Shown piece after piece: positions 6,001 through 41,389 of a stretch of DNA of 64,000 nucleotides. How positions within the stretch are numbered: position 1 is the stretch's first letter; each line of letters opens with the position of its first letter. Below the pieces are notes generated by a model. That model saw nothing but the letters and a program-made list of their open reading frames with translations, searched no databases and had not been told where the DNA came from. Position numbers and translations under genes: made by a program. The stretch comes from Abditibacterium sp. (GTDB taxonomy: Bacteria; Armatimonadota; Abditibacteriia; Abditibacteriales; Abditibacteriaceae): the NCBI GenBank assembly GCA_965246885.1, contig OZ251992.1:672001-736000 (forward strand), written 5' to 3'.

Positions 6001-6285
6001 GTCGCCGGGTTGGACGAGGTTGGGCGCGCCGGTGCGGGAACTGATGTTGAGGACGAGCGAGTGATCGCCCACGCTGGCCGACTGCGCCGACGCGATGTAG
6101 GTGTTTACCACGCCCCCGGCTGGGCCAACGCCATCCTTGCCGGGGGTGCCGCACACGGCGTGCGCCGCCCGCCCGCCCAGTAGGGTGCTGGCGAAGAAGC
6201 AAAAGAAAAAGAAGAAACGCTTCACGAGAGTGGAGAGGTCGGCTTTGCGTCCGACGAAATGGCCGTAGGAGAAAGAGAGAATCAT
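3061..6285 (-). CDS. Secreted glycine-rich adhesin-like protein with DUF11 and SdrD-B-like domains
   Basis: Signal-peptide-like N-terminus, GGGGG-rich block, DUF11 repeats (LVVTKT..YTITVSNTG; LVKSVDK..GDLLTYTIVYANTG), GVVFEDNG/DGIRNGTEPPIGGV. Start may be GTG near 6225. Confidence 0.8.
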   Translation of the reverse strand: MILSFSYGHFVGRKADLSTLVKRFFFFFCFFASTLLGGRAAHAVCGTPGKDGVGPAGGVVNTYIASAQSASVGDHSLVLNISSRTGAPNLVQPGDLLLLWQMQGASIDSSNTDNYGSGTAQTYPSGYTSLNSAGYYEFVRVTSPISPTGFVGVAGDGPGGGVRFSYVFDLSGSPRRTFQVVRVPQYSSMTLTSPLTPIKFNGTTGGILVVDVAGTLTFSTPTAASVYQTGFRGGFAPVNQAVNSNSNEVYTVSTTPRNGAGKGEGIAGRPRYVWDEGTAVDNGVEGYPGGDGGRGAPANAGGGGNAHNAGGGGGANSGAGGRGGYPWEGQAKQTGTVYDTVANSGGGTRQVARACGSGGAALVNGAAPFVDRMFMGGGGGGGDANDALTGVRGGVGGGVILIRAGKFVGTTAFDARGDAGDRGAQGPNPDGAGGGGAGGTVILISKNPSSASISVNASGGSGGNTANDPADPSSGGGGGTTWHGPGGGGGGGTVLYSNNVSVTTNTAGGPAGKTADGAGANHGTTPGSAGLSKTLSASDGNNLFDYSDSCGTNLVVTKTTSTPTIAPGGTTASYTITVSNTGAGGAAGVFVSDALPTPFSADIGTTATATFVIDSSGPATLASSSSTTTPVWGSPGADPTTSYDIGPGASLKLSFTVKINSAPVGLYNNSAQAFFSDPQRTTNTTVVSPGGTYTSGALVPGSNYNGTLPANTADDVSIAGTLSGVVFEDNGAGSGGVANDGIRNGTEPPIGGVTLTLKDGATTLATTVSAGDGTYSFALPQSSKGHTLSVVETNATAYLSSGADAGNTGGTYTIATDTLAFPFTGTPATLTGANFGDIRAATLDTDGAKVGIRGGSVTYPHLFTANTTGTAFFSVAQVGTPAPGWSVALYLDTNGNGIIDAGEGEIFPTTPVNTVAGAKVSLIVVNYVPQNAPDGSTDNITLSASFTPAKGGTNAQLPAQSLTRTDLTTVGPQSGVSLVKSVDKTTAKSGDLLTYTIVYANTGNAPVSQLVVNDVTPAFTTFQSASYVTPLPASLTGCTVAAPSIGGTGAVSWTFAGTLGAGARGTVTFVVKVN

Positions 6286-9200
6286 TTAGTTGCCCAACCT
6301 CGGTGCGGAATACGTCCCGGCGGTTCCGGTTAAGCCGTCGAGGGCGGCGGTGGTGCCGCCGTCAAAGGTGACGCCGCCACCGTAGCCGCCGTTCTCGACG
6401 GGCACGAACGGTTTGGCGCGCGAGACTTCGGGCGCTTTGTTGAAGGCGCCGATGCCGTTAAACAAGTCCTCGTCGAACTTCCACCGGAAGCGTAAGTAAA
6501 AGCCTCTGGCGAGGGTTTGATCGAGCAAGTCGCGCTCGGTGAGGTTCTCGAAGTTGTAGCCAAGAGAAAGCAGTAAGTCGCTGGTAAGGGCGTAGGAGCC
6601 TTCGAGACCAAAGGCGGTTTGTCGCCCACCGGGGCTGCTCCACAGGCTCGACGCGAGAAGCGAGGCCGAGGTGCGGCGTCCGAAGTCGCGCGTCAGGCGG
6701 CCCGAAATGAGGTAGGCGCTCGTGCCCGTGTTGAACGCGTCGCGGTCGGTGGCACGCTTGGCGGCGAGGTGCAACTGCGCGAGAAGCGAGCGCGAAGTGC
6801 CGTAGTTGACGTCGCCCGACAGGATATGCACGATGCGCCGCAAGCGGGCCGCGAGCGCGTCGGGGTCGTCGCCGCCGCGATACTCGTATTTGGCGAGGGC
6901 GTTCCATCGGTCGTTACGCGAAGGCCGGTAGGCGGCGCCGAACTGGAAGCGCGTCTGCTGGCGGTTCGAGCTACCCAACAGCACACTGCCCGCGCCGGAG
7001 CCGGTCTGCGAGTAGGCGCCGCGCCCCAAGAAGGTGAGGTCGCGCGAGGGGGCGTAGGCAAAGCCCGCGTTGAGTAGAGTCGAGGTGGAGCCACTCCCAC
7101 TGCGCCGCTCGGCGCGCGCCGTCCACTTCAGGGCGTCCTCGCGCAGGTTCTCCAAGGCGATGGAAACGGCGGTGCCGTCCGTTCCCGTATTGACGGTCTG
7201 TCCAACGCCCACCGCAAGCGCGGCCAAACGCTTGGTGCTTTCGAAGGAGGTGTTGACGCCAATGCCGCCGCCCAAGTTCCACGTGTTGCGCAGGCCAAGG
7301 GCGGCTTCGGCTTGGCGCCCGTCTATGCCGCCGTTGATGCGGTATTCCGAGAACAAGCTGGCGCCGCGCGCGTATTGGGTCTCTATGCCGACGCGGGAGT
7401 TGTAGCGGCGCTCGGTGTCGCCCAGAGCATATAAGGAAAGGGGCGATTGGAAGAACTCGTGGGTCGCGTAGAGCTTGGTGCGGGCCGCGAGTTGGTAGTC
7501 GCCGCCAACGGCAAGCGACTTGGCGCCGCCGTGCAAGGTCTGCTCGGCACGCACAAAGACGCCCGCTTTGGGGGCGCCCGGCACGCGGGCGTTCAAGCGG
7601 GCGAAAACGCTCGTGAAGTTCACATTGTTCGTGCCCACCCCGCCCGCGACGGCGCCCTGATCGCCTTTGCCAGTGCGCACGCCCGCCGCCAAGCGCACGT
7701 CTTGCCCCAGCCCCTGCTCGATAGACAGTTGCGCGCCCGTCGTGCGGGTCTTGGTGGTTAAATCCTTGGTGGCGATGGCCTCGCCTGACAGAGCGGTGTC
7801 CCGCCCGACGCGCAGGCTGGCGCGCACGCCCGCTTCGCCGCGCCCGTTCGACAAGACCGATTCCGCATTGGAAAAGCCGGTCGTGGCTTGGCCGACAAAA
7901 GCGCGCACTTGCAAGTTCTTCCCGTCGTGGCGCAGTTCCGCGCGCGCTGCGCTTCCACTGCGGGGAACGGCGGCGCCCGCGCCGCCGGGGTTCAAGGTGC
8001 CGCCGCTCGTGTGCGCGACTTCGCCGATGATGACGGTGTTTTTGTCCAAGCGCAACGCGGCGTTGGCGCCGTAGAGGTCGCCGCCGTTGTCGGGGTTGTT
8101 GTCGCGCACGAACGAGGCGCCGACTTGCAAGTTGCCGCTGATTTTTCCCTGCAACAAGCCGCCGTAGACGGAGTGTTTGGGGCCGCCCGCGTCCACGTCA
8201 TAGGTAACGCGGATAAAAACGGGGTTGTCGTTTTCGTCGAACGAGGGGACGGGCGCGCGGAACAGGAGGCCAGTCACGAAGCCGTCGAGGGTGTAGTCGG
8301 AGAAACGGGCCTGTTCGCGGATGCTCAGGGTCACGCCGGGGTTGTTGCGGTCGCGGGTGATGATCTCGACGCGCTCGGACTGGGCGCGAATGGCGGGGTC
8401 ATTGAGGGAGTAAGGCCCACTGGTGCCGTTGCCGCGAAACTCGACGACGCGCCGACTGGTGCTTTCGTTGGCGAAGAAGGTTGTGGCCGAAACGGACTTG
8501 TTCTCGACGTGCCCTTGCACGCCGGTAAAAGCGCGCGAGTAGCGCGACAGCGAGTTGGCGTCGCTGGATGCGCCTGAGCGCGCGGCGAAGCTGGAAAAGT
8601 CGCCGTAAAGGGCGAAGGAGTTGTCCTTGTCCACGCGCACGTAAAGCGCACTCGTGCTTTGGGCGTCGAAGCCTTTCAAGCTGGAATCGCCGTAGACGGG
8701 GTAAAACTCGTCCGGCTGAATATCGCGGAACAGGCGCTTTTCTTCGTCGCTTTGGGAGTCGTAGCGCACGGACAACAGATACTTGCCCGCGACCGAACCC
8801 TTGAGGTAGACGGCGCCGCGCGTGCCGATGTTGTGGCTGCCGATGCGGTTGAGCGTGCGCTCGAAAGCGCTCGTAGCGATGCCGCCGCCCTTGTTGCCAA
8901 AGCCGATCTGCGTTTCGAGGATGCCCGCCGCGAGGACAGGGCGCAGGAACGGGGTGAAAGCGATTTCGCCCTCGGACTGAATCAGCCCCGCCGACACGCG
9001 CACGACGGCGCGCGCGGGCACGTCGGGCGGCAGCAGTTGGAAGGTGGCTTGGCCGCCTTCGATGGCGACTTGCACGCCCGGTTCGTTCGGGTTGAGGTCG
9101 GGCACGTTCCAGCGCCCGGCGGTGGTTTCGAGGGTAACAAAAGTGCGGGCGCTCACCTTGTTGCCGTTGGCGTCGAATATCTTCACGCCGACGATAACGG

Positions 9201-12200
9201 GCGTGAGGCCATCGGCGGGAGCGCCGTTGCCGGGAAGCACGAGGGCGACTTGGCCCGCCGTGCCGGGAGCAACCACGCTCACTTTGACTTCGCCGCGCGC
9301 GTTGCCGAAGCTGTCGGTTTGGCTCGCGCGCAGTTCGTTGTCGCCCGCCTTGAGCCGCACGGCGATCCACTCCAAGCCCAGTATGCCGCGCGCGGCGTCT
9401 TCGGAGCGGGTGCCGATGCGCTTGCTCGACTGCTCCTCGCCGTTGACGAACAAGTGCACCGTCGCGCCGAGCGTGCCTTTGACGCGCACGTTCAAGGTGT
9501 CGGAGGCGAGCAACTTGCCCGCTTGCAGGTTGAGGATTTGCAGCTTGCCATCGGTCGCGCCTTGGATTTGCTGCTCCAATGTTTCGCCGGACGCGGGCAG
9601 AGCGGGGGCGACGGGTGAGGCGAAGTTGCCGTCGAGCGGCCCGTCGCTCGCGGTGCGGCGCGGCAGCGTATCAATGGCGGAGGGCGCGGAAACGGGCGTT
9701 TTGGCCCCGTCCCGTTCGGCGGAGATGGGCGACTCGTCCGCCGTCGTCCCGGAATCCATCGCGTCGTCCGGCGCGACGGCGACGGGCGTCGGCGCGACGG
9801 CGGCGGGCGTCTTGGATGGGGTGGCGGGCGTCTGGGGCGCGTTGGCGGAAGCGCCGGAGTTAATAACTCCCGACGCAAGGCCGGACTTGTTGAGGACGTC
9901 GGTCGAGCGCAGGATCTGCGGCGCGGCGGGCAAGGGCGAGCGCAAACGGGCGTCCAATTCGGGCACGGCGGGGTCGCCCGCTTTAATGCGGCGCGCGACT
10001 TCGGCGAGGGTGTCCTCGTCGGCATCCACGAGCGCGAAGTCCACTTTGCCCATCTCGCCGTTCTTGAGGTCGGCGAAAGCGGTCTTGCCTTTGCCGCCAT
10101 GCATGACGGTCAAGGATTCGAGCTTGGCCCCGGCGGGCAAGGTGGAAGTGTCTATCTTGACGATGTGGGTGAGGGGAAGCAGCCCATAGATGGAGTATTT
10201 GCCGTCGCGGTCAGTGACGGCGTAGTTGCCGTTTTCCAAAAAGATGCGCGCGCCGGGAACGGGCAATTCATCCTTGTCTTGGCGCGCGTTGTGGTTGGCA
10301 TCCACCCAGACTTTGCCGATGAGGATGGCGCGGGTGGTGAACACGCCGCCTTGGACGTTGACAACGGCAGTGGCTTCGTTGGAAGTAAAGTTGTCAACGG
10401 GCGTCGAAGCCGTCGCCCTCGCGCGGTTGACCGCGCGGCCCACGCTGGCTCCGGCGCCGATGCGGGTGCGGTAACGGATGGTGGTCTGGCTGTTGGCGGC
10501 CAAATCGCCCAAAGAGAAGACGAAAGCGTTGCTGGACAGGATGAGCGGGTCGGGAAGTGCGACTACGCCAGTAGCGGGCGGGATGGCGTCGCGGCGGGCG
10601 GTGCCGGGAACAAAGGTGAAGCCGCGCGCGGGCGTGTCGGTCACGGTCACGCGGGAAAGCGCGGCTCCTGACACGTTGTTGACGGTGAGGGCGTATTCGA
10701 CGGTGCCGCCGATTTCGGCGTCGCGCGCCAAGGCCGCTTTTTGCAAGAAGAGGCCGGTGCCTTGGCGCGCGTCGAGGGGAACATCAAGGCGCACGAAGCC
10801 AGTCGCGGGGACATTGAAAGTGCCGCCGTAGGAACCCGAAGCGTCTATGGCGCGGCCCGCAGGCAACAAGTTGGGCGCGAAACGGGAGGGCGCGGTGTAA
10901 CCGGTCGGGGGAACGATGACCAAGCGGTAAGCGCCGGGAGCAACGGCGGGGAATTGGAAGATGCCGTCGGCGCCAGTGACGACCGTTGAGGGGCGCGGCG
11001 TGACGCCGTCGAAGTCGAACACCTTGGCGGGCAGGCCCGTCGCGGCATCAACCAAGGAGACGCGCGCGCCCGCGACCGGGGCATTGGTGCGCGAATCGAA
11101 AACGACGCCGGACGGGTCAACGAGGATGTTCGTGACCGCTTCCGCCGTGCCGCACCCGCTAAGACGTGCCGTCAGCTGGTCGTTGGCTTGGACTTGCAAG
11201 ACGGAGTCGCCGGGGTTGGGCGCATCGCCCGAAGTCTTGACGGGGCTGTCCACGCGGAACACGCCGGTGTTGGCGCCGGTTTCAGTTGCGCCAACGGTGA
11301 TGGAGTCGCCGGTCTTCTTCGAGGCGATGGTGATTTGGACGTGCTCGGCGACGAGGGGGTCGTTGTTGCACGCGGAGTCCTCGCCTTGCAGATACAAGTT
11401 GCGCCCGACGCCGGTAACTGTTTGGGGGCGCGCGTAAGTGGGGTCGGTGTAGTAGGTGAGGGTGGGCGGGGCGAGGGGAACGCCCACTTGGACGGGGTTG
11501 GAAGGGGTGGAAACGTCCACGTCCACCGTTCCGCCGGTGGTGCCATCGGTCGAGTGCGTCCAAATGACGGCGGTGTTGTTGATGGTGCCCGACGCATTGC
11601 CGTTGATGCGCACGGAAAAGCTGCCGCGCAACGTGGCTTGAGGGGCGAAGGACGACACGCCCCATGCGACGGCGTCAACGGGGAGTTGGGGCGTGGAGGT
11701 GTAGCTTTGCAAGGAGTCGCCCGCGTGGTGATACATCACGACGGAGCCGACATCGGGCGTGCCAACGATCGAGACGAAGGTGGTGTTGGCGGGGATCGTG
11801 TCGCGGAGCACCACATAGGTTTGGGGAATGTTGTCTATGGCAACGGCGATGGGGTCGGGCGAAGCGGCGCCGTTCGAGGTGGCGGTGAGGGCGTAGGTGA
11901 GGATTTGGCCGCGCGTGGCTTGGGCGGGCGTGACGGACTTGGTCACGCTGACGGAGGAGCCGGACGAGACAACGACGCGGTCACTGTTTTGTGCGCTCAC
12001 GTTGGTCGAGGTGGAGCGGGCGGCGATAACGACGTTGGCGCCGCTTTCGGGGCGGGCGCTTGTGGGCACGGTGCCCAGAACGAGGAAATCGGCGGAGTCG
12101 CCGGGGTTCAAAGTGATGGAGTCGCCAAAGTTAAAGGGCGGCTCGCCCGCGTCGGCGATGCCGTTGGAGTTGGTGTCGCGCACCAAGGAAAGGCCGGTCA

Positions 12201-12570
12201 GGTCGTAGTCGTCGCTTGTTGCGTTGGTGACGGTGAGGGTGTAAGTAGAAACGACGTTGCCGGTGTTGGTGAGGCGGTGCGGAAGAGTAACCGATGCACC
12301 GGGGCGCGCGCGGCGGGTGTTGGGCTGCACCAAAGCGAGGGCCTCGACGGGCGAGACGAGCATTTGCACCGCGTTGGAACTGATGCGCTCGGTGCCACCC
12401 TGCGCGATGTAGGAAGCGTCCGCTTGGTTGCGAATGACAGCGCCCGCAGGCGGAGCGAGGGTTTGCGCATGGCTCGCGGGAGCGCAAACCCCGATGAGGA
12501 GGGCCAAGGCCGCCAACACCGGGCGCAAGGCGCGTGTGAAAGCGGGGCTGGATGATGGAATAAAAGACAT
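6286..12570 (-). CDS. Very large secreted DUF11-repeat protein with probable C-terminal outer-membrane beta-barrel region
   Basis: Signal peptide (..APASHA), several DUF11/Ig-like modules, DPSGVVFDS and IGKVWVDAN modules, YPVYGDSS motif, then a long run of amphipathic beta-strands ending GFYLRFRWKF. Confidence 0.8.
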   Translation of the reverse strand: MSFIPSSSPAFTRALRPVLAALALLIGVCAPASHAQTLAPPAGAVIRNQADASYIAQGGTERISSNAVQMLVSPVEALALVQPNTRRARPGASVTLPHRLTNTGNVVSTYTLTVTNATSDDYDLTGLSLVRDTNSNGIADAGEPPFNFGDSITLNPGDSADFLVLGTVPTSARPESGANVVIAARSTSTNVSAQNSDRVVVSSGSSVSVTKSVTPAQATRGQILTYALTATSNGAASPDPIAVAIDNIPQTYVVLRDTIPANTTFVSIVGTPDVGSVVMYHHAGDSLQSYTSTPQLPVDAVAWGVSSFAPQATLRGSFSVRINGNASGTINNTAVIWTHSTDGTTGGTVDVDVSTPSNPVQVGVPLAPPTLTYYTDPTYARPQTVTGVGRNLYLQGEDSACNNDPLVAEHVQITIASKKTGDSITVGATETGANTGVFRVDSPVKTSGDAPNPGDSVLQVQANDQLTARLSGCGTAEAVTNILVDPSGVVFDSRTNAPVAGARVSLVDAATGLPAKVFDFDGVTPRPSTVVTGADGIFQFPAVAPGAYRLVIVPPTGYTAPSRFAPNLLPAGRAIDASGSYGGTFNVPATGFVRLDVPLDARQGTGLFLQKAALARDAEIGGTVEYALTVNNVSGAALSRVTVTDTPARGFTFVPGTARRDAIPPATGVVALPDPLILSSNAFVFSLGDLAANSQTTIRYRTRIGAGASVGRAVNRARATASTPVDNFTSNEATAVVNVQGGVFTTRAILIGKVWVDANHNARQDKDELPVPGARIFLENGNYAVTDRDGKYSIYGLLPLTHIVKIDTSTLPAGAKLESLTVMHGGKGKTAFADLKNGEMGKVDFALVDADEDTLAEVARRIKAGDPAVPELDARLRSPLPAAPQILRSTDVLNKSGLASGVINSGASANAPQTPATPSKTPAAVAPTPVAVAPDDAMDSGTTADESPISAERDGAKTPVSAPSAIDTLPRRTASDGPLDGNFASPVAPALPASGETLEQQIQGATDGKLQILNLQAGKLLASDTLNVRVKGTLGATVHLFVNGEEQSSKRIGTRSEDAARGILGLEWIAVRLKAGDNELRASQTDSFGNARGEVKVSVVAPGTAGQVALVLPGNGAPADGLTPVIVGVKIFDANGNKVSARTFVTLETTAGRWNVPDLNPNEPGVQVAIEGGQATFQLLPPDVPARAVVRVSAGLIQSEGEIAFTPFLRPVLAAGILETQIGFGNKGGGIATSAFERTLNRIGSHNIGTRGAVYLKGSVAGKYLLSVRYDSQSDEEKRLFRDIQPDEFYPVYGDSSLKGFDAQSTSALYVRVDKDNSFALYGDFSSFAARSGASSDANSLSRYSRAFTGVQGHVENKSVSATTFFANESTSRRVVEFRGNGTSGPYSLNDPAIRAQSERVEIITRDRNNPGVTLSIREQARFSDYTLDGFVTGLLFRAPVPSFDENDNPVFIRVTYDVDAGGPKHSVYGGLLQGKISGNLQVGASFVRDNNPDNGGDLYGANAALRLDKNTVIIGEVAHTSGGTLNPGGAGAAVPRSGSAARAELRHDGKNLQVRAFVGQATTGFSNAESVLSNGRGEAGVRASLRVGRDTALSGEAIATKDLTTKTRTTGAQLSIEQGLGQDVRLAAGVRTGKGDQGAVAGGVGTNNVNFTSVFARLNARVPGAPKAGVFVRAEQTLHGGAKSLAVGGDYQLAARTKLYATHEFFQSPLSLYALGDTERRYNSRVGIETQYARGASLFSEYRINGGIDGRQAEAALGLRNTWNLGGGIGVNTSFESTKRLAALAVGVGQTVNTGTDGTAVSIALENLREDALKWTARAERRSGSGSTSTLLNAGFAYAPSRDLTFLGRGAYSQTGSGAGSVLLGSSNRQQTRFQFGAAYRPSRNDRWNALAKYEYRGGDDPDALAARLRRIVHILSGDVNYGTSRSLLAQLHLAAKRATDRDAFNTGTSAYLISGRLTRDFGRRTSASLLASSLWSSPGGRQTAFGLEGSYALTSDLLLSLGYNFENLTERDLLDQTLARGFYLRFRWKFDEDLFNGIGAFNKAPEVSRAKPFVPVENGGYGGGVTFDGGTTAALDGLTGTAGTYSAPRLGN

Positions 12571-18806: not shown

Positions 18807-18868
18807 GATTGGAAGAGGTCGTCAGACCCCCTACTCTATCAAAGCGGGGCTACCGCCCTCTTCCAATC
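18807..18868. repeat. 62-bp palindromic dispersed repeat, copy 1 (left arm degenerate)
   Basis: Right arm AGCGGGGCTACCGCCCTCTTCCAATC is identical to that of the copy at 24708-24769. Confidence 0.85.
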
Positions 18869-19969: not shown

Positions 19970-20872
19970 TTAATCGCCCAGTAGCTCCGGCGCTTCCTCC
20001 CGCAGCCAGTCGCGGATGTCGAGCCGCGCTTCCAGAAATTCGTGCGCGTTTGGCGCAGTGATGGGAAAGCGCAGCGTCGCGACTTTACCCGTTTCGCGCT
20101 GGGCGAGCGGCCCGACGCCGACTTCTCGGTTGAGCCGCACGCCGCGCGGCAAGAAGGGGCGATTACGCGCCACGATTTTCTGGAGCCGCACTCCCAATGC
20201 CGGCGGCGCCGACTTGAAGCGCGGGCGCGGGCCGCTAAAGTCTACAAACGCCGTTTCGGGTGTGAACTCCGTTCCCGGCGCGGCGCAGAGGCGGTATTCG
20301 AGGTGAGCGCGCTCCTGCCACAACTCGGCGCAATCCCAAAACGCCGCCAACACGAGGCGGCGCAGCATCGCGCCGTCGCCCGTCGTCCATTGGAGGCCGA
20401 AGAACTGCCGCGCGTCGGGCGGCAACAGGAGCCACTCGAACGCCTTGCCAAGGTCAGACCCCGCCCGCTTTCGCTCGCGGCGGAGTGCCGCTTGCAATTC
20501 CTCGGATGGAGTTTCCAACAGGAACCGCGTCGTTTTCCACCTCGCCCCGCGCACTTCACTTCGCGCCAACTCGCCCCCGCAAAGCGCGAACGTCTGCCCT
20601 CGATGCAGCAACACCCGCTCGCCCTCCGCCAATTCCACCGCGCGAAAGAACCCCTCGTTTCGCAAAGTCGCCCGCAACCGCGCCCGCCCTTCGTGCACCG
20701 CCTCGCCGCCCAGCGCCCGCTTCAAGCTCCCGTCGTGATCCAAAAAGCACGCCACGAAGTCCAGCGCCCGGCCATCGGGCCGCGCCCACAATTGCCCCTC
20801 CAAGTGCCAAAACCGCCACGTCGCCCCCTCGAAATCGAGGGACAAGAGCGGGAGAGTGTCGGGAATGGGCAT
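19970..20872 (-). CDS. Hypothetical protein, paralog family member 1
   Basis: 300 aa; GSDLGKA; C-terminal PNAHEFLEARLDIRDWL. Confidence 0.8.
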   Translation of the reverse strand: MPIPDTLPLLSLDFEGATWRFWHLEGQLWARPDGRALDFVACFLDHDGSLKRALGGEAVHEGRARLRATLRNEGFFRAVELAEGERVLLHRGQTFALCGGELARSEVRGARWKTTRFLLETPSEELQAALRRERKRAGSDLGKAFEWLLLPPDARQFFGLQWTTGDGAMLRRLVLAAFWDCAELWQERAHLEYRLCAAPGTEFTPETAFVDFSGPRPRFKSAPPALGVRLQKIVARNRPFLPRGVRLNREVGVGPLAQRETGKVATLRFPITAPNAHEFLEARLDIRDWLREEAPELLGD

Positions 20873-20884
20873 GTCGGCCAGCGA

Positions 20885-21340
20885 TTAAGACGCTTTGGGG
20901 GCGTCCTTGAAGTTGTAGTCGAGGCCCGCGCGTAGCTCCTGCTCGAACTCGAACGGGTCGGCGCCGGGCGCGGTGAACGTGGCGTGAAAGACGATGGTGT
21001 CGGGCGCATCTGGAATCGAAGCGGCGACGCGCCAGCCGAACTGCGGGCTTCCCCTGTTATCGGACGGCACGTCGGTCAGGGGCAACAGGGGCGACACCAG
21101 AAGCGCCTGTCCCGACCCATCGCTTAGCCACGCGCGCTCCAACGAGGGCCGCGCTCCGTGCGAGGCGCCCACAATCGGGTCGCGCCGGTCAACGGACACA
21201 ATCAGTTCGCACCCCGCCGCCCCGCGCGACGACTGCGCACCCGCGAGGGAAATCGGCGTTTTGGCCAGACGGCTCCGAACCAGTAGCACGGCGCCCACGC
21301 CCACCAACGCCGCGAGAAAGAGGCTCATGTTGCGCTTCAT
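20885..21340 (-). CDS. Hypothetical membrane-anchored protein
   Basis: N-terminal hydrophobic anchor (MKRNMSLFLAALVGVGAVLLV); fits tightly between neighbours. Confidence 0.65.
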   Translation of the reverse strand: MKRNMSLFLAALVGVGAVLLVRSRLAKTPISLAGAQSSRGAAGCELIVSVDRRDPIVGASHGARPSLERAWLSDGSGQALLVSPLLPLTDVPSDNRGSPQFGWRVAASIPDAPDTIVFHATFTAPGADPFEFEQELRAGLDYNFKDAPKAS

Positions 21341-21376
21341 TGGAACCACCTCAGTTTAAAGGGCGGCTGCCAACCC

Positions 21377-22309
21377 TCAAACCACCTTCCCCAAATGCCG
21401 CACCCCGTCGGGCCAGTGCGCTTCGAGCCACGCCCGCAACTCCAGCATCGCTTCGAGCCGCTCGTGCTGCGAGGGGCGCGCGACTTCGACCGAAAAAGAC
21501 GTGGAATAGCCGTTGCGATACGCGCGCAAGGCGGCAGGTGTCGCGGGCGAATCGGGAACGCAGCGCGGCTCGAACGCGCGCACGATGTGCCCCAGAATCG
21601 CGCGTTCGCGGATGCCAAACGGGTGTTTCTCTTCGAGCAGAAAGCGCGCATCGCGGCTGTTCGGCCCGAACGTCAGTTGCATGGCCAGCGCGTTGGAGGG
21701 CCACTGCGCCTCGAACGCCCGTAGCGTTTGTTCAACCAGATGGGCGAACGCGCGCGGCGTCTCGATGCGCGTTTCGACTGAGTGCAGAGCGCGTTCCAGT
21801 TTGGAAGACGTGGCGAAATACGCCGCGAAGCGCAGGTCGGAATCGGCGTCTTCCCACTGCGACTGAAGCCGCGCGAACATGGCCGAGGAAGGTATCTCTA
21901 ACGGGTCGGGCACCTTAAATCCCAGCGCGGCGCCCTCCTCCCCGCCTACAAAGCTGTCCAGTATTTGGAAGAGCGCCCAGCCGTTGTCCTGCTTCCACCC
22001 GACGAAAAGGGCGGCGTCCAGCGCCCACACGCGCCCCAACGTCTGCGCATGCCATTCGTCGCCCACGAACCGCGCGAGGTTGCTGCGTTCGGGAAACAGC
22101 CAAACGGTTCCGAGAGAACTGGCGGCAATGGGAATCGCGCGCAACGCAAAGTTCCACTCGCCGTCCGCCTGCTGCTCCTCGCGCGCCCACCACAGCCCGC
22201 CGCAGTTGCGGAACAGCCACGCGCGCCCTTCAACTGTCAGGCGTTCATGCGCTTCCCCGTCCGCCACGTCCGGCGACAAACGCTCCCAAGGATGAAATTG
22301 AAAGTCCAT
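21377..22309 (-). CDS. Hypothetical protein, paralog family member 2
   Basis: 310 aa; DSDLRFA; C-terminal PSQHERLEAMLELRAWL. Confidence 0.85.
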   Translation of the reverse strand: MDFQFHPWERLSPDVADGEAHERLTVEGRAWLFRNCGGLWWAREEQQADGEWNFALRAIPIAASSLGTVWLFPERSNLARFVGDEWHAQTLGRVWALDAALFVGWKQDNGWALFQILDSFVGGEEGAALGFKVPDPLEIPSSAMFARLQSQWEDADSDLRFAAYFATSSKLERALHSVETRIETPRAFAHLVEQTLRAFEAQWPSNALAMQLTFGPNSRDARFLLEEKHPFGIRERAILGHIVRAFEPRCVPDSPATPAALRAYRNGYSTSFSVEVARPSQHERLEAMLELRAWLEAHWPDGVRHLGKVV

Positions 22310-22312
22310 CGG

Positions 22313-23287
22313 TTACTCCCGGCTCCTTGCCTCGAAGTCGGCGATGAAGTTTTCCTCCAACGCGCGGGTGTCGCCGCCGATGCGGTCGAGCCACCCCGCC
22401 AACCACGCGTGCGCGTCGTCGGGCGGGGGCAGCTTGTCGGCGAGGAATTGAAGCGAAAAGACGCGCGGTTGCGGCGCTTCGCTCAGGCGCCCGACGCCTT
22501 TGTCGGTGGTGTCGAAGTAGTGGCCGAGCGGCGTAATGACGTCAACGGCCCAGTCGCACAGGAGCCAAAAGCGCGTGGACAAACGCAGCGTCGGGCGCTT
22601 CCAAGGGAGGTGGAAACGTTGTCCGCTCGCTTCGTCGAAGTAGAGGTCAACCTCGCCGCGCTCGGCTTGCACGGCGAAGCAACCCGCGCGGTAAAAGGGC
22701 GATTCCGATTGAAACGTCGCGCGAATAATTTTGCCCGACCCGCGCACCGCCTCCTCTAAGGCGAGCGCGTTGCCCACGATTTCGAGCAACCCCGCCCGCG
22801 TCCCGCCCGCAAACTCCAGTGACACGTCGCGGCCTTTGGGCCAGCCCAGAGCTTCCAACTGCGGCGCTATCTCCCGCGCGAACAATCCCGCCGCAAAGGG
22901 GAACAGCGAATGGGCGGGCGCTTCCAGCCATTCATGCAGCGACAGGTCGTGATTGAAGGCGATGTCCTCGCGGTTCCACGACTCGCGCATCCACCCCGTC
23001 CCATCGGGCCGCAAAAAGAGCGGAAATTCGCGCCGCCAAGTCTCCGCCTCGAACGGCAGTAGCACATACCGCGCGACCCGCCCGCGCGCCAACTCCCCCG
23101 CGAAGTCCGCCGCGCCCGGCTCGAACGCGAGCATCCAATCCGCGCTCTTGCCCGCTTCCAGCAGAAACGTCAGCCCATGCCGCGCCCGCCCAAAGTAGGT
23201 TCGCCCCGCGTGTTCGAGCGAGAACTCAGCGCGCGGCGTCGCCAGTCGCGGGCGCGGCCTGTCCCAAGGCCGAATCGGAAATTCCAT
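22313..23287 (-). CDS. Hypothetical protein, divergent paralog family member 3
   Basis: ATG 23287, MEFPIRPWDR..LEHAGRTYF resembles member 2 MDFQFHPWER..VEGRAWLF; the C-terminal motif is degenerate (DDAHAWLAGWL). Confidence 0.7.
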   Translation of the reverse strand: MEFPIRPWDRPRPRLATPRAEFSLEHAGRTYFGRARHGLTFLLEAGKSADWMLAFEPGAADFAGELARGRVARYVLLPFEAETWRREFPLFLRPDGTGWMRESWNREDIAFNHDLSLHEWLEAPAHSLFPFAAGLFAREIAPQLEALGWPKGRDVSLEFAGGTRAGLLEIVGNALALEEAVRGSGKIIRATFQSESPFYRAGCFAVQAERGEVDLYFDEASGQRFHLPWKRPTLRLSTRFWLLCDWAVDVITPLGHYFDTTDKGVGRLSEAPQPRVFSLQFLADKLPPPDDAHAWLAGWLDRIGGDTRALEENFIADFEARSRE

Positions 23288-23300
23288 ATGGGAAGTTTGC

Positions 23301-24344
23301 TCATGCCAACAAAGCCGCAATCCGCTCGTCCGGCAAGCCGACGCGCTCGCGGAGCCAATCGCGCAGTTGGAGCAGGGATTCAAGGCGTTCGTGGGCGGTT
23401 TGTCCTTGGAGGTCAACAATAGAGTCGACATAGCATTCGCTCACGGCTTCGATGGCGGGGTGACGCGCGGCTTTTTCTTCATCGAAGCCGGGCGCGAAAT
23501 GCGAAAGCCACACTTGCCACAGCGCGCTCGGCTCGTGGCGGGCGAGGTCGTAGTCATCATAATCGGCGTATTGCCATCCGACTATGAGCGAGAACAACTG
23601 AAAAAGCGAGGCGTGGCCGCGCCGTAGCTTGACGCGCACCCCGGCGGCGGGCGCGCAGTCGGCGTAAAGCGGGCTGAGCCACTGGGGATCGCACTCTAAA
23701 AGCAGACGGGCGACGCGCCGCATCTCTGCCCATTCGTGCGGCTCCAAAGGACAAACGAGGCGCGCGAGATCACCGGGTCAGGCGCTCGCAACGGCGCGGG
23801 CGAAGTGGAGGTCACTCGATTCGTCGGCGACCAACGACGCGGCGTAGTCGCGCCAAAACGTGCCGGGCGTCGAACCGAAATCGCCGTCGAAGTGGAAGCG
23901 AAAAGGAATCTGCGGCGCCTTGACATCGAAGCGGGTCATGGGAGAGTTCGGCACGAAGCCTTCGCCATCGCGCCCGAAAAACACCGCTTCGCTGTCCAAA
24001 AGCGCGAGACCATCAGTGCGGTTGTGGCGCACAAACACGAGGCGCCCGATGTGGCCGCGCCGCCATTCATCCTCGAACAACTTTTGCAAGAATACGGAGT
24101 TGACGACCGCGCCATGCGGGAAGGGTTCGCGCACCGCGAAATTCCACTGCGTCGGCTCGCGCCCGACGCGCGGGGATGATGGCTCGCAAAAGCGCAGGAA
24201 GTTGCCGACTAACTGAAGCGTAAACGCGCGCCCGTCCACCTCGACGCGAAGCGGCGGGCGCATCGTTTCGCGTCCGGTGGTTTCCCACGCGGCCAGTTCG
24301 AGGGCTTGGGGTTGGAGTTTCACGGCGCCAGTTTCCCCAATCAT
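23301..24344 (-). pseudogene. Paralog family member 4 with one in-frame TGA at 23778-23780
   Basis: Track ORFs 23778..24596 and 23301..23747 share a frame: ..ESSDLHFARAVASA*PGDLARLVCPLEPHEW..QTAHERLESLLQLRDWL. Joined length 347 codons. Confidence 0.75.
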
Positions 24345-24676
24345 TTCCGCCGCCGAAAGAACGGGAGCAGGCACGCGACGAACCCGGCGAGGCCGAACAG
24401 GAGGGACGGGACGGAGATGACGAGGAAGTCGCGCGCCGACAAGTCGCTGCTTTGTTTGCCGAACGCGCCCAACACCATCGTGCCGCCGCACGCGCCGATG
24501 GCGCCGAAGAACATCAGGCCGAAGATGAGCGCGATGGCGTGGGTGGTTGACAAGCGCGCGCCCTTGCCGTCCAAGCGGGCGCCGCAATGGGGGCACAGTT
24601 CCGGCTTGGTTTCGAGCGCCGCGCCGCAGTTGGGGCAGGTGAAGGGCGCGGGTTGCGGGAGCGGCGCGGGGTTCAT
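24341..24676 (-). CDS. Zinc-ribbon membrane protein
   Basis: CPNCG..CPHCG followed by two TM segments. Confidence 0.75.
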   Translation of the reverse strand: MNPAPLPQPAPFTCPNCGAALETKPELCPHCGARLDGKGARLSTTHAIALIFGLMFFGAIGACGGTMVLGAFGKQSSDLSARDFLVISVPSLLFGLAGFVACLLPFFRRRK

Positions 24677-24707: not shown

Positions 24708-24769
24708 GATTGGAAGAGGGCGGTAGCCCCGCTACTTCATCCAAGCGGGGCTACCGCCCTCTTCCAATC
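24708..24769. repeat. 62-bp palindromic dispersed repeat, copy 2 (perfect 26-bp arms)
   Basis: GATTGGAAGAGGGCGGTAGCCCCGCT-N10-AGCGGGGCTACCGCCCTCTTCCAATC. Confidence 0.9.
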
Positions 24770-35189: not shown

Positions 35190-38100
35190 TTACTCTCCCA
35201 CTCCCACTCCCACCCGCATCTCGTCGCTCGTCGCGCGGATTTCGGGGGCGTAAACGGCGTAGCCATTCGTCGGCAGGGCGTGGAATTGGCCGGGCGCCTC
35301 GGCGCGCACGCGGTAGCGCAAGACGCGGCGGCCTTGCGGCAGGCTACTGACGAAGAAGGCTGTTTTGTCGTCGCGCATTTCGACGTAAGAGCCGAGGCCG
35401 TTGCTATAGTCGTAGCCGGAGCGGATGTCCACCGGCTCGAAGCCCGCTGCTTTCATGTCCTCGAAGACGAGGTATTCATAATCGTTGCGGGCGTTGACGA
35501 CGAGTTCGACTTCGATCAAGTCGCCACTTTTCACGCTCGCGCCATCTTTGATTTCCTCGCGCTTGTATTCGGGCGCTGGCGGGGTGTAGTCCTGCGGCGG
35601 GAAGGGCACGATGACAGCGCGCCCCGCGACTTTGGCCGCCGTGCTGCCGGTTGTCGGCACGTCCACGCTCGCGGCGGGCTTGGTTTCGGCGCGGGTGAGC
35701 TTGTAGAAGGTGCGCCCGACGCTCAGTTCGTTGCCGCTACCCTTGATGGGGTCTTCGCGCGAGAACGAATCCTCGTAGGCGGAGAAATACAGCTTGCCGC
35801 GCCCCGTCTTGGTGATGGTGAGCGTGTTCTTCGCGGCGCCACTTTCGAGGAACAGGTCGCCCGCGCGGAAGCGGTTGTCGAACCAAAGGGCGTTATCGGC
35901 GGTGACGTGGTAGGTGCGCGCCAGCTTGCCGTTGAGACTGACCTGCACGTTCATATCCACGTCCAACTCGCGGTGGCGCGCGACGTATTGGGCAAGGGTA
36001 TAAACGACCTCGGCGGTTTCCTTGGTGCTTCTCCAGTGGTTGCCGCGCGAGTTGAGCGTAAGCCATTTGGCGAACATCGGCACCAACTTGTTGTCGGGCG
36101 CGATCTCGTCGAAGGCGCGCAGCGCGAGCGCGACTGTCTCCACATCGTTGTTCCACCACAGCCAGTAGTCGGGTTGCGTCTGGTAGCGCGCCGTGCCGTT
36201 GTCGGCGTCTATGCGGACGGTGTTTTCGAGGTTGCGCACCACGACGTTCGCTTTGTCGGTTTCGCCGTTGCGGGCGAGCGTCATGGCGAGGTAGCACTTG
36301 GCCAAAGGCGCCAACCGCTCGCGCTGCGTGAACAAACGCCCGGACGCGAGGCTCTTGGCCATGCTGTCACTCCCGTCTTGCGAGAGGGCGTAGGTCATAT
36401 ACGCGAGCAGTTGCAGGTTATCCTCGTCTTTAAGGTGGTTGCGCAGGTAGTCGCGGCCCCGGCTCAGGGTGTTCTCCTCGAACCCGATGCCCGCGCGCTT
36501 GGCTTGCGACAAGCCGTAAACGACGTAGGCGGAAATCCACTCGTCGCTTTGCGAGGCGCCCGGAAACCAGCCCCAGCCGCCGTCGTCTCGTTGCATCGAA
36601 GCGAGTTTCTGCATCCCCTCGCGCGTCATTTGCGCGGTCAGCTTCGCATCGTAGATGGGGTTGGAGCGACCGTGCCCGTCGTACCACCACATATGCGACG
36701 CCATTTCGTCCAAGTCGCGCGCGTTCGGCTCGCCCTTGGGGAACGAGTAGCCGGAGTTCTTCACCGTGCCCAACTTCGACTTGGTCTGCGCTTCGGCCTT
36801 GTAAGCGGCGGCGCGGGCGCGCAGCGTTTCGAGGTTGACGCCCGACGCTTTGAGCGAGCGTTCCACCAGAGCGGACGGCAGAAAGCGCGACATGGTTTGC
36901 TCGACGCAGCCATACGGGTAGTCGGCCAGATACGGCAGGGCATCGAGCGCCGTCGCCGCGAGCGAGGGGTTCAGTTGCACGTTGAGTTGCGACGCGCCGA
37001 ACTGCCGCTTGCCGGGAAAGGTGAGCGGGATGGTCGTCGTGCCGTCGGCGGCAATGACACCGGCGTGCGCCGCGAACTGCGGGGCGCCGTGCGTCAGGAC
37101 GGGGAAGGACAGCTTCACGGCATCGGAATCAGTCGCGGTGCGCGCCGACGCGCTGATGGTCGTCTTGCCTTCGCGCGCGGCGGTAACGACGGTATCCACG
37201 CGCTTCTCTTCGCCCGCCGCGAGCGTCACGGACTGCGGCGCGGGCGTGTTGCCGAGCAAGCCATCGAAGCCGAAGGCGACTTGCGCGGTTTGGGCGCGGT
37301 CGGAGTAGTTGTGGACGTTCGCCGAGATCGTCACTTGGTCGCCCTCGACGAAAAAGCGCGGGGCTTGCAAGCGCACGATGAGGTCTTTCTTCGTCGCGGC
37401 GTCCGATTCGGCGCTCCCGACTTGGACAGAGTTCGTCAGGCCGCGCGCTGTCGCGTGCCACTGCGTGAGCGAGTCGGGAAAGGTGACTTTCACCGTCGCC
37501 TCGCCGCCATTTGTCACTACGGCGGGCGACCAAAACGCGGTCTCGGCGAAGTTGGAACGGACGGGCTCGGCGTCAGGCGCACCGCCGCCCGCCACACTCT
37601 TTGCCGCCAGTTGTGCGTCTATCCTCGGCGCAGCCGCCGGGGTCGCAAGGGTTATTCCATTGGTGTCAGCCAAATAGTTGTTCCTGCCGCGCGCGTGGAG
37701 GAAAGTTACCCCGCCACTCATTCTGGCGCTCCGCGAGTATGAACCGTTGAAGGCATACCCATTATAATCGTGATACCCGTAATACCCGAACCCGCCCGGC
37801 ATGAGTTGCAGTTGGCCGAAGTCGTCGGGCAACTCCCATCCGTGCCGCTCGATGTTGGGTTCGGGCGGGGTTTCGGAGCGCGCTTCGATGTTCCCCGACC
37901 GGCTCGAATCGAGGTTGACGGAGTTGCCGCGCCGGTCGCCATAAAAGAACGAGCGCGCGTCGGGCGTGGTGTCGGCTTGGATGTAGAACAAACTGGCGTC
38001 CACCAAGGCGAGCGAGACTTCGGCGCGGGCGGGCTGGCCGCTCCAATCGCGCGCGCGGATGTGGAAGGTGCCGGTCTCGCCCGGTTTGTAGGTCGCTTTA

Positions 38101-41100
38101 TCGCCCTTGACATCGAGCGTCAGCAGTTGGCGCGTCGGCGGCACGATGACCTCGGTTTGCGCTTGGAACACCTCGTAGTCCTGCACAAGCGCCGCGCCCA
38201 AGAAGAAGTTCGGCACTTTGCTCTTGTCGATGGGGATGCTAACCTCGACCGATTGGCCGCCGGAGGGTAGGCGCATATAATAGGCGTCGCGGTTTATTGG
38301 CGCGCCGATTTGGATGATGTCCCGCTTGAGGATTTGCCCGTTCGCTTCTTGGGTGAAGAGGACGCTCGCGCCGGGGGTGTCGGCGACGAGGCGGGCGTGC
38401 AGGGTTTGGCCTTCTTCGTAGGCGGGCTTGTCGAGCAGGATGGTGACGCCGCGCAAGCGAATCTGCCCGACGTTCTCGCCGACGACCCACGCTTCCAAGG
38501 CGGCCTTGGGTTTGTCGCCCCACTCGGATTGGCCCTCGAACTCGATGCGGAACTGGCCCGAATCCCTCGCTTCCCACGTCCATGTGGCGCGGCCCGTCGC
38601 GTCGGTGCTGATGGGTTGTTCGAGGAGTTTTTCTTCCTTGTCGCTTGGGAGCAGGCGGAAAACGCGCATGACGCCCGACGCGGCGACGGGCTGGGCGTTG
38701 GCGTCTTGGGTGCGCAGTTCAACGGGCACGCGGTCGCCCTTTTGGGCGTAGCCTTGCGAGGTATTGAGGAACGCGAAATACGCTTGGTTGGCGACTTTGA
38801 CTTGGCCCTGCGCTTCGATGGTGCGACGGGAAGAGTCGGTGATTTCCGCTTCGACGGTGTAAAGCGGGTTGGGCCGCCCGCGCCACCAACCATTTTCAAT
38901 GACGTATTGCGGTTGGGCGTCCAGCGCCGATGTTTTGAAGGCGATTTTGGCGGCGCCTTGCGCGTCCGTCGTAGTGGTGCCCTCGAAGACGATCTCGCCT
39001 GACCCCTCACTCCCGATGTTGCGGCGGTTGCCGTAGGAGTCCATGCCCCACGCGGTGGTCAACCAGTCGTACGGCGAGGGAAAGCGGAACTCCGAATACC
39101 AGACCGACTTGCGGACGGTGTATTTGACGTGCGCGTTTGGCACGGGGGCGCCGAAGTAGTAGCGGGCCGACAAGCGCGCCTCGACGGTTTCACCCGGCTT
39201 TTTCACGTCTTTGGGCGCGGCGACGGTGACTTCAAATTCGGGCCGCTTGTATTCCTCGACGCGAAATCCGGCTTGGCTGCTAATCCGGTCGTCGTCGGAA
39301 ATGCTCAGCGAACACGCGCCGAGCGCCGATGAATCGAGTAGCTTGAACTCGCCCGACAAGGAGCCAAATTCGCCCGTCGTCGCTTCGCCTTCCCACAACT
39401 TCGCGCCGCGCGCGTCGTTCGCCGTGATGAAAAACTTGCGGCCAACAAGCGGTTTGCGGTCGTTGCCCGTCGTGCGGTTGGTGGCGACGAAGCGGAAGTG
39501 GACGGTTTGGCCGGGGCGATAGACGGGGCGGTCGGTGTAGCCGAGCACTTTGGGTTGGTTCTGGCTGTCGTGGCCCCAATAGCCGTAGCCGCCGTAGTTC
39601 TGGTCGCCCGTGAACGCGTAGCGGTTGCCGATGTGGGCGAAAGCGGCGAAGTTGGAGGGGTTGTTGGCCGCGCGGGTCTTGTCGAAGAAGCCGTCCGTCC
39701 CGGTCGCGCCGCGCGCGATGCTGACTTTGCGGTGGTTATCGTCCCACCATGTCTCTTTTATCGTGACATGGGCGCCGGGAACTTTGGCGCCGGTGCGGGC
39801 GTCGCACGCCCACACGAAAGCGCTTTTCACATCGCTCTTTTTCAAGAGCGCCAAGTCCGACACAACGACGATTTGACCGAAGCGAACCTTGCCCGCGCTC
39901 GCCACGACGACATAGGCGCCAAGGTCGGTGATGGGCGCGGCTAATTTTGCGACCCGCGCACTATAATTTCCCGCGTCCTCGGTCTTATGCATCCAGCGCG
40001 CAACGGGGGCGCCTAACTTGGCGGTGAGGTCGCCGATGGAGCCGAAGTTTTTTGGGAAGGAAGTGAAGGTCGCCTCGGCGTCTTGGAGCGGCTTGTCCGC
40101 GAGCAGGAAGTCTTCCAACTTCACCCGATAGGCCGCGAAGAAGACTTCCTTGACGTTGCGCGACTGCACTTGCAGTTGCGGCTTCTCTCCCGGTTTGGCG
40201 ACGCCCAAAACCGAGAAGGAGACCTCGCGCCGCTCGATGTCGCGGATGGCCGCGCGCGCATCGTTCGCCCATTTGGACTTGGGGTATTTTCGCGCAAGTT
40301 CCAGCCAGACGGCGCGCTGCTTGACGGCGCTGGGTTGACGTTGCGCGAGGGAAACGAGCGTTTGCGGCGCGAGCGGCGAAGCGGGGAAGGTGTCCACCAA
40401 GCCGCGCAGGGGCGCGTCGGGGTCGAGGCTTTGGAAGGGGAACGGCTTGACGATGGTTTTCTTGGTTTGCGCGTCGTAGCGCGTGGCCCACGCGAGGGTG
40501 CGGCTATGGTAGGCGCCCAGAAAGAGGCCCTCGCCGAGCAGGGCGCGCCCCGTTTTGGAGCGGCCCTCGCCCTCGTCAAGGGTGGGGGTTTGCCGATACA
40601 GGAACAGCACCTTCTTGGGCAAGCTCCAGCCCGTCGAGTAGCGCGCGCCCACGTCCAAGGCTTCGTCGAACGGCCCATCGCCGTGCTTGTCGAGGGTTTG
40701 GATGAACTCCTCGAAGCTCACCTGCGGCAAAAAGGCGGCGAGGTCGAGGTTCAGGTCGCACTCTTCATCCCACGCGAGCGGGTAGATGGGCGCGAAATAA
40801 CGGTTCGCCTTGGCGTCGCGGCGCTCCCCCTCGGCCAATACTTTCGCGGCTTCCATGTGCGCGAGCGCGGCTTTCTGGTCGCTTGCGTAAAGGGAGATTT
40901 GCTGCGGCGTTTCGCCGTTCTTGACGACCGGGTATTCGTTCTGGCGCAGGGTCTTGTCGCCGACCTTCCACGCATTGTGCGGGGCTTGGACGTAGATGAG
41001 GCCGAGCAGATACTCGAAACGCGCTTTCCACGCGGCGGTTTTGGCGCCTTCGGACGCGGCGGCGATGGCTTCGTCCCACTTTTGCGTCTTCCACAGCGCG

Positions 41101-41303: not shown

Positions 41304-41389
41304 CTGTGGGTCTTCGACTGTGGGGCGCGCGGCTTTGTTCCCTTGCCCCAAAACAACAGCGCGCGAACTTTCGTTCGCGCGCTGTTCAA

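Follow-up and report, generated by a model that had tools for sequence, protein, structure and literature searches.

Four tandem paralogs belong to a dispersed family in Abditibacterium

Within a 64,000-nucleotide stretch of an Abditibacterium sp. genome (GCA_965246885.1, contig OZ251992.1, positions 672,001 to 736,000; the whole stretch is called the window here), four co-oriented minus-strand open reading frames (ORFs), which we name A to D, occupy positions 19970 to 24344 (Table 1). A preliminary description of this DNA had singled them out as paralogs with common N-terminal, SDL, and C-terminal motifs, all of which are indeed present in the translations, and had interpreted them as a rapidly diversifying immunity or defense array. 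Our analysis favors a different role: A to D belong to a 22-copy family whose members, with a probability of roughly 0.55, would serve as interchangeable clients or adaptors of a single MoxR-type AAA+ ATPase and its partner, a metallopeptidase fused to a von Willebrand factor A (vWA) domain.

Table 1. Features of the array and of the associated ATPase operon. Positions are those of the window unless a contig of this genome (G000) is named.
Feature	Position	Strand	Remarks
Member A	24344-23301	-	347 codons, interrupted in frame by TGA at 23778-23780; the family Trp immediately ahead of this stop is missing too
Member B	23287-22313	-	324 aa; without SDxxFA and HERLE motifs; own conserved acidic tail
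Member C	22309-21377	-	310 aa; modeled as beta-rich N-half (~1-135), helical linker (141-175), and alpha/beta C-domain (176-310)
Family signature P(T/S)xHE(R/Q)LEAxLxLRxWL	21425..21475	-	Residues 279-295 of C
Member D	20872-19970	-	300 aa; orthologs in four genomes, 55-68% identical
CAAACT hexamer	23294..23299	-	Just upstream of the ATG of B
Gene between C and D	20885..21340	-	N-terminal hydrophobic segment; not a family member; no Pfam match over cutoff
Zinc-ribbon membrane gene	24341..24676	-	PF13248, E 4.9e-7; overlaps start of A; not a family member
MoxR-type AAA+ ATPase gene	G000 C1:180137-181207		Away from the window array
Metallopeptidase-vWA (DUF2201) gene	G000 C1 ~176400-177600		Away from the window array

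The homology of A to D is weak in pairwise comparison (BLASTP E values of 3e-4 to 1e-3 in the best four of the six pairs) but clear by profile: a profile of 131 relatives less than 30% identical to A to D, whose underlying alignment had originally been built with A to D included, gave 131 bits for C, 106 for A, 105 for D, and 27 for B, compared with 10.3 for the best of 1,000 shuffles. A DNA-level repeat as the source of the shared motif was rejected by eye, because third codon positions vary. When the last 70 residues were used for an iterated profile, 21 of 40,917 six-frame ORFs scored at E values of at most 1.3e-7, and the next ORF lay at 0.94. Including B, the family comprises 22 genes in this genome, at 17 sites (the profile lists 23 matches, as one broken copy falls in two pieces), and is thus mostly dispersed.

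The family is lineage restricted, as had been proposed. Twelve of the 13 genus genomes carry it (with 1, 2, 2, 7, 15, 18, 23, 33, 37, 39, 41, and 46 matches; the single match belongs to G001), the sole genome without a match being G006, which is 93% complete. In the phylum, where seven candidates per genome were scored, 17 of 301 genomes matched, five of them outside the genus. G388 holds a separate expansion of 10 matches. A library of 1.84 billion representatives (50% identity clusters) contained 749 family matches, one of which is recorded as an Abditibacteriota hypothetical protein. In sets of 20 and of 143 members (the latter at E 0.01), no Pfam family was hit by more than one member, a sequence search of the PDB returned no matches, none of 20 members matched PHROGs (phage copies were checked through PHROGs and viral fold models), a plasmid search with C gave none, and the ESM Atlas offered nothing usable for either C or the second unit in the fused member P0014. 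Longer fused forms were absent from the 7,999 candidates scored, which is weak evidence. Secretion or a membrane location was rejected, with a hydrophobic window above 1.8 in just 1 of 143 members. A literature search on Abditibacterium, which covered journals outside subscription, gave no title on this family. Taken together, the family is real, was not found described before in the searches made, and likely represents a new fold.

Family members accompany a MoxR-type ATPase and a metallopeptidase-vWA protein

The first sign of a partner came from a Pfam scan of 67 further or unnamed neighbors, which revealed an AAA_5 ATPase and a DUF2201 protein beside members in G000, G001, G008, and G264; 88 neighbors scanned with NCBIfam had given unrelated housekeeping genes. 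The ATPase matches AAA_5 above the cutoff (PF07728, E 2.9e-7), carries a Walker A (GAPGIGKS) and a Walker B (FLDE) motif, and begins about 28 residues before Walker A. Its 415-residue partner matches PF13203 and PF09967 and joins an HExxH metallopeptidase to a vWA domain that ends the protein; HExxH and DTSGS (DxSxS), the two motifs to which our check was limited, were present in 14 of 14 partner sequences.

At a threshold of E ≤ 1e-60, the ATPase occurs in 13 of 401 genomes of the phylum, 11 from the genus and two (G264 and G388) from family f9, and is single copy except in G008. In all 11 genus genomes with the ATPase, a family member lies within 1.5 kb of it (in this genome, the member at G000 C1:179147-180130), and in both f9 genomes a member directly follows the ATPase and vWA genes. 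Hence all 13 ATPase genomes and 13 of the 14 ATPase copies have a neighboring member, the missed copy starting 40 bases from a contig end; the same is true for seven of eight metagenome loci, the eighth of which begins inside the ATPase. As a background, only 50 of 2,130 genes of this genome (2.3%) have a member that close. Records of ATPase loci were assigned to Abditibacterium or its higher taxa, plus one to Chthonomonadaceae. Furthermore, orthologs of B (48 to 51% identical) sit immediately upstream of the ATPase gene in the genomes G004, G009, and G011 and at metagenome locus L133, which ties the window array directly to the ATPase.

The members found beside the ATPase are not a single lineage. 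The 16 members adjoining the ATPase or vWA gene have a median identity of 20% and fall into at least seven separate groups of a tree of 130 sequences from fetched loci, and ATPase-adjacent members occur upstream, downstream, divergent, and convergent. At locus L130, four members precede the ATPase and one follows it, before a gene termed c2 and the vWA gene. G006 is devoid of both this ATPase (only a 35% identical type is present) and the family. The strong DUF2201 type is found in 11 of the 13 genus genomes; it is absent from G005, and G006 has a 602-residue type in its place.

The family signature follows the same distribution. Its histidine, His282 in C, is kept by 118 of the 123 members scored from the 13 ATPase genomes but by none of six members from five genomes in which the ATPase was not found (G005, G016, G017, G089, and G131). 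Two of these five, G089 and G131, belong to the same genus, and there a His stands one residue earlier. This count covers fetched loci with identical motifs per genome collapsed, rows with unaligned tails, B-type members included, dropped, and the four window members left out. Four of these five genomes show no PF13203, and G016 has a different, LRV-linked system.

One further protein was observed at these loci. A 496-residue protein (L099:9651-11141, contig C1 of this genome) is encoded between a member and the DUF2201 gene, has an N-terminal hydrophobic leader, and gave no Pfam or PDB sequence match. Its YFTGHG and VQCHAGG motifs we take to be reminiscent of a caspase-like His-Cys dyad. Homologs lie in or beside the operon in eight of 11 genus loci examined, with two copies in G010.

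The signature helix is predicted to pack within a C-terminal domain of likely new fold

An AlphaFold2 model of C based on 143 sequences reached a predicted local distance difference test score (pLDDT) of 91 and a predicted template modeling score (pTM) of 0.84, and residues 176 to 310 modeled alone gave 91 and 0.85. The helical linker of the model carries the SDxxFAxxW motif. Conservation over the 143 sequences is concentrated in the signature (His282, 99%; Glu283, 92%; Glu286, 97%; Ala287, 94%; Arg292, 90%), which together with R93 contributes all near-invariant positions (R93, H282, E283, E286, A287, and R292). In a covariation analysis of 249 sequences, which was noisy, Q194-E290, L191-A287, and I238-L295 were among the top pairs; these set the signature helix against helices 185-198 and 233-246 and suggest that it packs within the bundle of its own C-domain. 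The docking or oligomerization helix originally proposed is thus not supported in that form.

Fold searches returned no clear relative. Foldseek found nothing at E ≤ 0.001 in the PDB or among viral models. The best hit of a VIA fold search over 48,161 chains, the C-terminal region of ZFYVE9, had a Z score of 4.0 (root mean square deviation [rmsd] 3.2 to 3.3 over 76 to 78 residues) both for the whole model of C and for the C-domain alone, where the Z score typical of this tool for models without a clear match is 7 to 8; the N-half reached at most 3.9 within the full-model search. The immunity protein EsaG (DUF600 type) and BH3703 matched the C-domain at Z scores of 3.0 to 3.1 (rmsd 4.3 to 4.5 over 74 to 76 residues), a level of about 3 being background. 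A likeness to the TolA/TonB C-terminal domain (Foldseek E 0.6 to 2.5, template modeling score about 0.3) was dropped; it was not among the rows with Z ≥ 2 afterwards. We read the members as soluble two-part proteins, likely of a new fold.

Members are old duplicates under purifying selection

Counterparts of the window array, with more members, lie in synteny next to acs in G002, G003, G010, and G012; in this genome, the acs-side members are about 36 kb from A to D. Identity to the orthologs is 67 to 68% for B, 55 to 68% for D, 36 to 47% for C, and 26 to 30% for A, compared with medians of 68 to 76% for other genes of those loci (6 to 18 genes per genome) and 87 to 91% for the ATPase. The ratio of nonsynonymous to synonymous substitution rates (dN/dS) is 0.09 to 0.20 for B (10 pairs), 0.10 to 0.26 for D (the nine of 10 pairs that could be computed), and 0.28 for C (one of three pairs), values that are rough given that dS exceeds 1 in ortholog pairs. 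These ratios indicate that purifying selection acts on the orthologs of B, C, and D along their whole length. The duplications are old, because the best full-length pair inside this genome is only 36% identical while most copies have closer relatives in other genomes. Rapid diversification, as proposed at the outset, is thus not supported in that form, whereas the gain and loss proposed along with it is borne out by 0 to 46 matches per genome and by broken copies; on the sequences compared, the pattern is one of old duplication, stable orthologs, and continuing loss. Codon use is atypical in most members, 14 of 21 having dicodon scores within the lowest tenth. A member broken into two frames (L013, G000 C1:2553318-2553844) adjoins WYL and Cas6 genes.

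Member A illustrates this loss. The reported stop codon is present, and A is likely a pseudogene, because the TGA occurs in the contigs of both public runs containing the window DNA and both halves of A align with intact relatives (26 to 32% identity). An assembly error was rejected on the basis of these matching contigs, which show no differing letter; the runs come from a single study, and one run may be the source. The tail of B, in contrast, had been taken for degenerate but is retained in B orthologs and has not decayed.

The idea of a conserved C-terminal part was borne out. Two ORFs of 197 to 208 codons in G388 hold the C-domain without the N-half, which identifies the C-domain as the constant part of the family. 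Two members, P0013 and P0014 (L046:8790-10730), are two-unit fusions, and one unit of each is without the His.

Flanking genes and further neighborhoods

Among the genes described as interleaved with the array, the zinc-ribbon gene and fur (PF01475, E 3e-24) were confirmed by Pfam; the gene between C and D, described as membrane-anchored, has a hydrophobic N-terminal segment. None of the flanking zinc-ribbon, transmembrane, fur, and gnd genes had a match in the array loci of relatives that we compared, and a functional tie to fur or gnd was rejected in favor of local rearrangement. The immunity or defense array was not supported as first put: no toxin or defense-system gene was seen next to the window array, and in PADLOC-DB 2.0 a single member of 143 gave a match, a weak one (E 0.004).

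The hexamer before B is possibly a leaderless-type promoter: A(A/C)ACT occurs upstream of six of 21 members compared with 252 of 2,480 genes (p 0.016). Genome-wide, AAACT at -12 is the most frequent positional 5-mer before ATG starts (59 of 2,042), which suggests frequent leaderless transcription. A palindromic repeat resembling repetitive extragenic palindromes, at window positions 24708-24769 and 18807-18868, brackets the block with the array and has about 10 related sites in the genome. The window further contains very long minus-strand ORFs (1,074, 2,077, and 2,053 residues) in 3061-12519 and 35190-41351.

Elsewhere, a DUF6915 gene is found immediately upstream of one G089 member (L076:6432-6851) and heads an array in G010 (L048:13760-14155), with similar genes in G131 and G002; no paper names DUF6915 in our literature search. 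A three-member array in G002 (L054:2604-3965) runs into a gene for a Hen1 RNA-repair methyltransferase, and genes of equal length occupy the matching place in L055 and L063. Finally, a class A beta-lactamase gene (L006:1317-2054) lies upstream of acs, near two members.

Comparison with known MoxR-vWA systems

In the MoxR-vWA pairs studied so far (Kaur et al. 2020, PMC7159879), a peptide is caught by the vWA protein, and the energy of ATP hydrolysis serves to remodel and free the bound protein; some pairs include a third component of the VMAP, iSTAND, FtsH, or beta-propeller type. The system described here shares with these ternary systems the MoxR ATPase, a vWA partner with intact DxSxS, and a linked third protein in which a variable N-part is joined to a conserved alpha+beta C-terminal domain with invariant polar residues. 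It differs in that a zincin (DUF2201) is fused ahead of the vWA domain, which lacks effectors at its C-terminal side, and in that the ATPase has no N-terminal extension (WxhapG and PsWRxa in the VMAP type). Moreover, where VMAP systems keep a strict order VMAP-MoxR-vWA in cognate three-gene sets, we found several orders and orientations, and a single machine is accompanied by as many as about 46 third components at dispersed sites. At E 0.01 no Pfam family recurred among the 143 members, in a Pfam copy whose VMAP-C content was unchecked. The family is best classed as a new third component within a MoxR-vWA system, rather than under the VMAP systems.

CbbQ/CbbO is a further MoxR ring that acts through the MIDAS of the vWA (a metal ion-dependent adhesion site). 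For NorQ/NorD, an acidic residue of the target is the sixth ligand of the MIDAS metal (PMC9976466), and we propose the same mode of action here. These two systems have one dedicated enzyme client each and no zincin, whereas the system described here has many divergent partners. Group 2.2 jumbo phages share the two-gene core of a MoxR ATPase and an N-terminal metallopeptidase fused to vWA, proposed for virion assembly (PMC7824862); here, the pair is chromosomal and single copy, and its partner family is without a PHROG match. The same ATPase-DUF2201 core also occurs in LRV-linked operons (L094 to L097 in G016, G019, G020, and G039, tandem in G019), but these adjoin large LRV/HEAT-repeat genes unrelated to the family. 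Because these operons carry an unrelated repeat protein, the comparison suggests that the third slot beside the MoxR-DUF2201 core is exchangeable. Our literature search, which covered journals outside subscription, found no paper naming both DUF2201 and MoxR, and DUF2201 alone led to unrelated titles.

Possible roles of the family

Our best reading of these associations is that the family forms a new third component of a MoxR-vWA system that has expanded into a dispersed repertoire. By analogy with known systems, members would dock on the vWA domain via the His/Glu end of the signature helix, with the MIDAS gripping an acidic residue of the C-domain (Glu283 or Glu286); ATP hydrolysis would then pull the signature helix, possibly leaving the zincin domain to cleave the member or its cargo or to set it free. 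Judged by the sequence pattern, the variable N-half might give each member its own stable target, for which, again by analogy, invader or stress proteins could be guessed. It is tempting to go further and picture one MoxR ring whose vWA subunit bears a protease and which is directed by dozens of new-fold adaptors, each expressed on its own, whose N-half chooses the target (possibly phage proteins) and whose His/Glu handle docks, a logic like that of the substrate receptors of eukaryotic ubiquitin ligases; this picture is speculative and we consider it rather doubtful. The tie to the MoxR/metallopeptidase-vWA pair does, however, keep a conflict role for the family open by a route different from the one first proposed.

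Several points weigh against a client or adaptor role. The evidence is all genomic, related genomes are not independent, and the association with the ATPase comes from two lineages. The gap gene also has a member next to it in five genomes, and simple synteny can thus keep members and housekeeping genes together. Five genomes keep members (six scored) without this ATPase, among them G005, which is just 80% complete, and B-type members are without the motif and fall outside the His count, yet abut the ATPase. Going by the covariation, much of the signature helix may be buried, and its conservation may therefore have structural reasons; moreover, helices are commonly capped by Thr-x-x-Glu. Effector domains were not found.

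Alternatively, the members could be metal-dependent enzymes or ligand binders with diversified substrates, in which His282 and Glu286 bind a metal inserted by the MoxR-vWA pair. Five near-invariant positions at about 20% identity (four polar plus Arg93), the His-x-x-x-Glu on one helix face of the model, the loss of the His where the ATPase is missing, a purifying selection similar to that on neighboring enzymes, and the precedent of NorQD and nitric oxide reductase (PMC9976466) are in line with this idea. We nevertheless regard it as unlikely, given a single conserved His, no enzyme fold match, members consisting of the C-domain only, neighbors without a common pathway, and a zincin domain that would be superfluous for metal insertion.

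Somewhat more improbable still is a purely historical link, in which the family arose as a tandem array beside the operon and is now independent, its members acting for instance in immunity or as decoys. Some relatives have long arrays abutting the ATPase, such as the four upstream members of L130, copy numbers range from 0 to 46, broken copies exist, six members persist without the ATPase, and the C-domain bears the faint likeness to EsaG and BH3703 mentioned above. However, that likeness is at background level, the association spans two families of the phylum and several subfamilies, and motif decay follows the absence of the ATPase; among the 88 and 67 neighbors scanned, no cognate toxin was found, save one Gp49-like toxin gene two genes from a member. 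That the C-terminal helix drives homo- or hetero-oligomers, forming a scaffold assembled or dismantled by the ATPase, is the least probable explanation, since the two-unit fusions with one His-less unit each and the tight packing of the arrays are offset by covarying pairs that fit an intramolecular bundle and by the lone member of G001.

We know of no identified clients for most MoxR-vWA pairs. If the family members are clients or adaptors of the MoxR-type ATPase, the present finding would supply candidate partners, residues to mutate, and a natural negative set in the members of the ATPase-less genomes. A gene family that BLAST clustering does not reveal, and that ranks among the largest in this little-studied genus, thereby gains a testable role.

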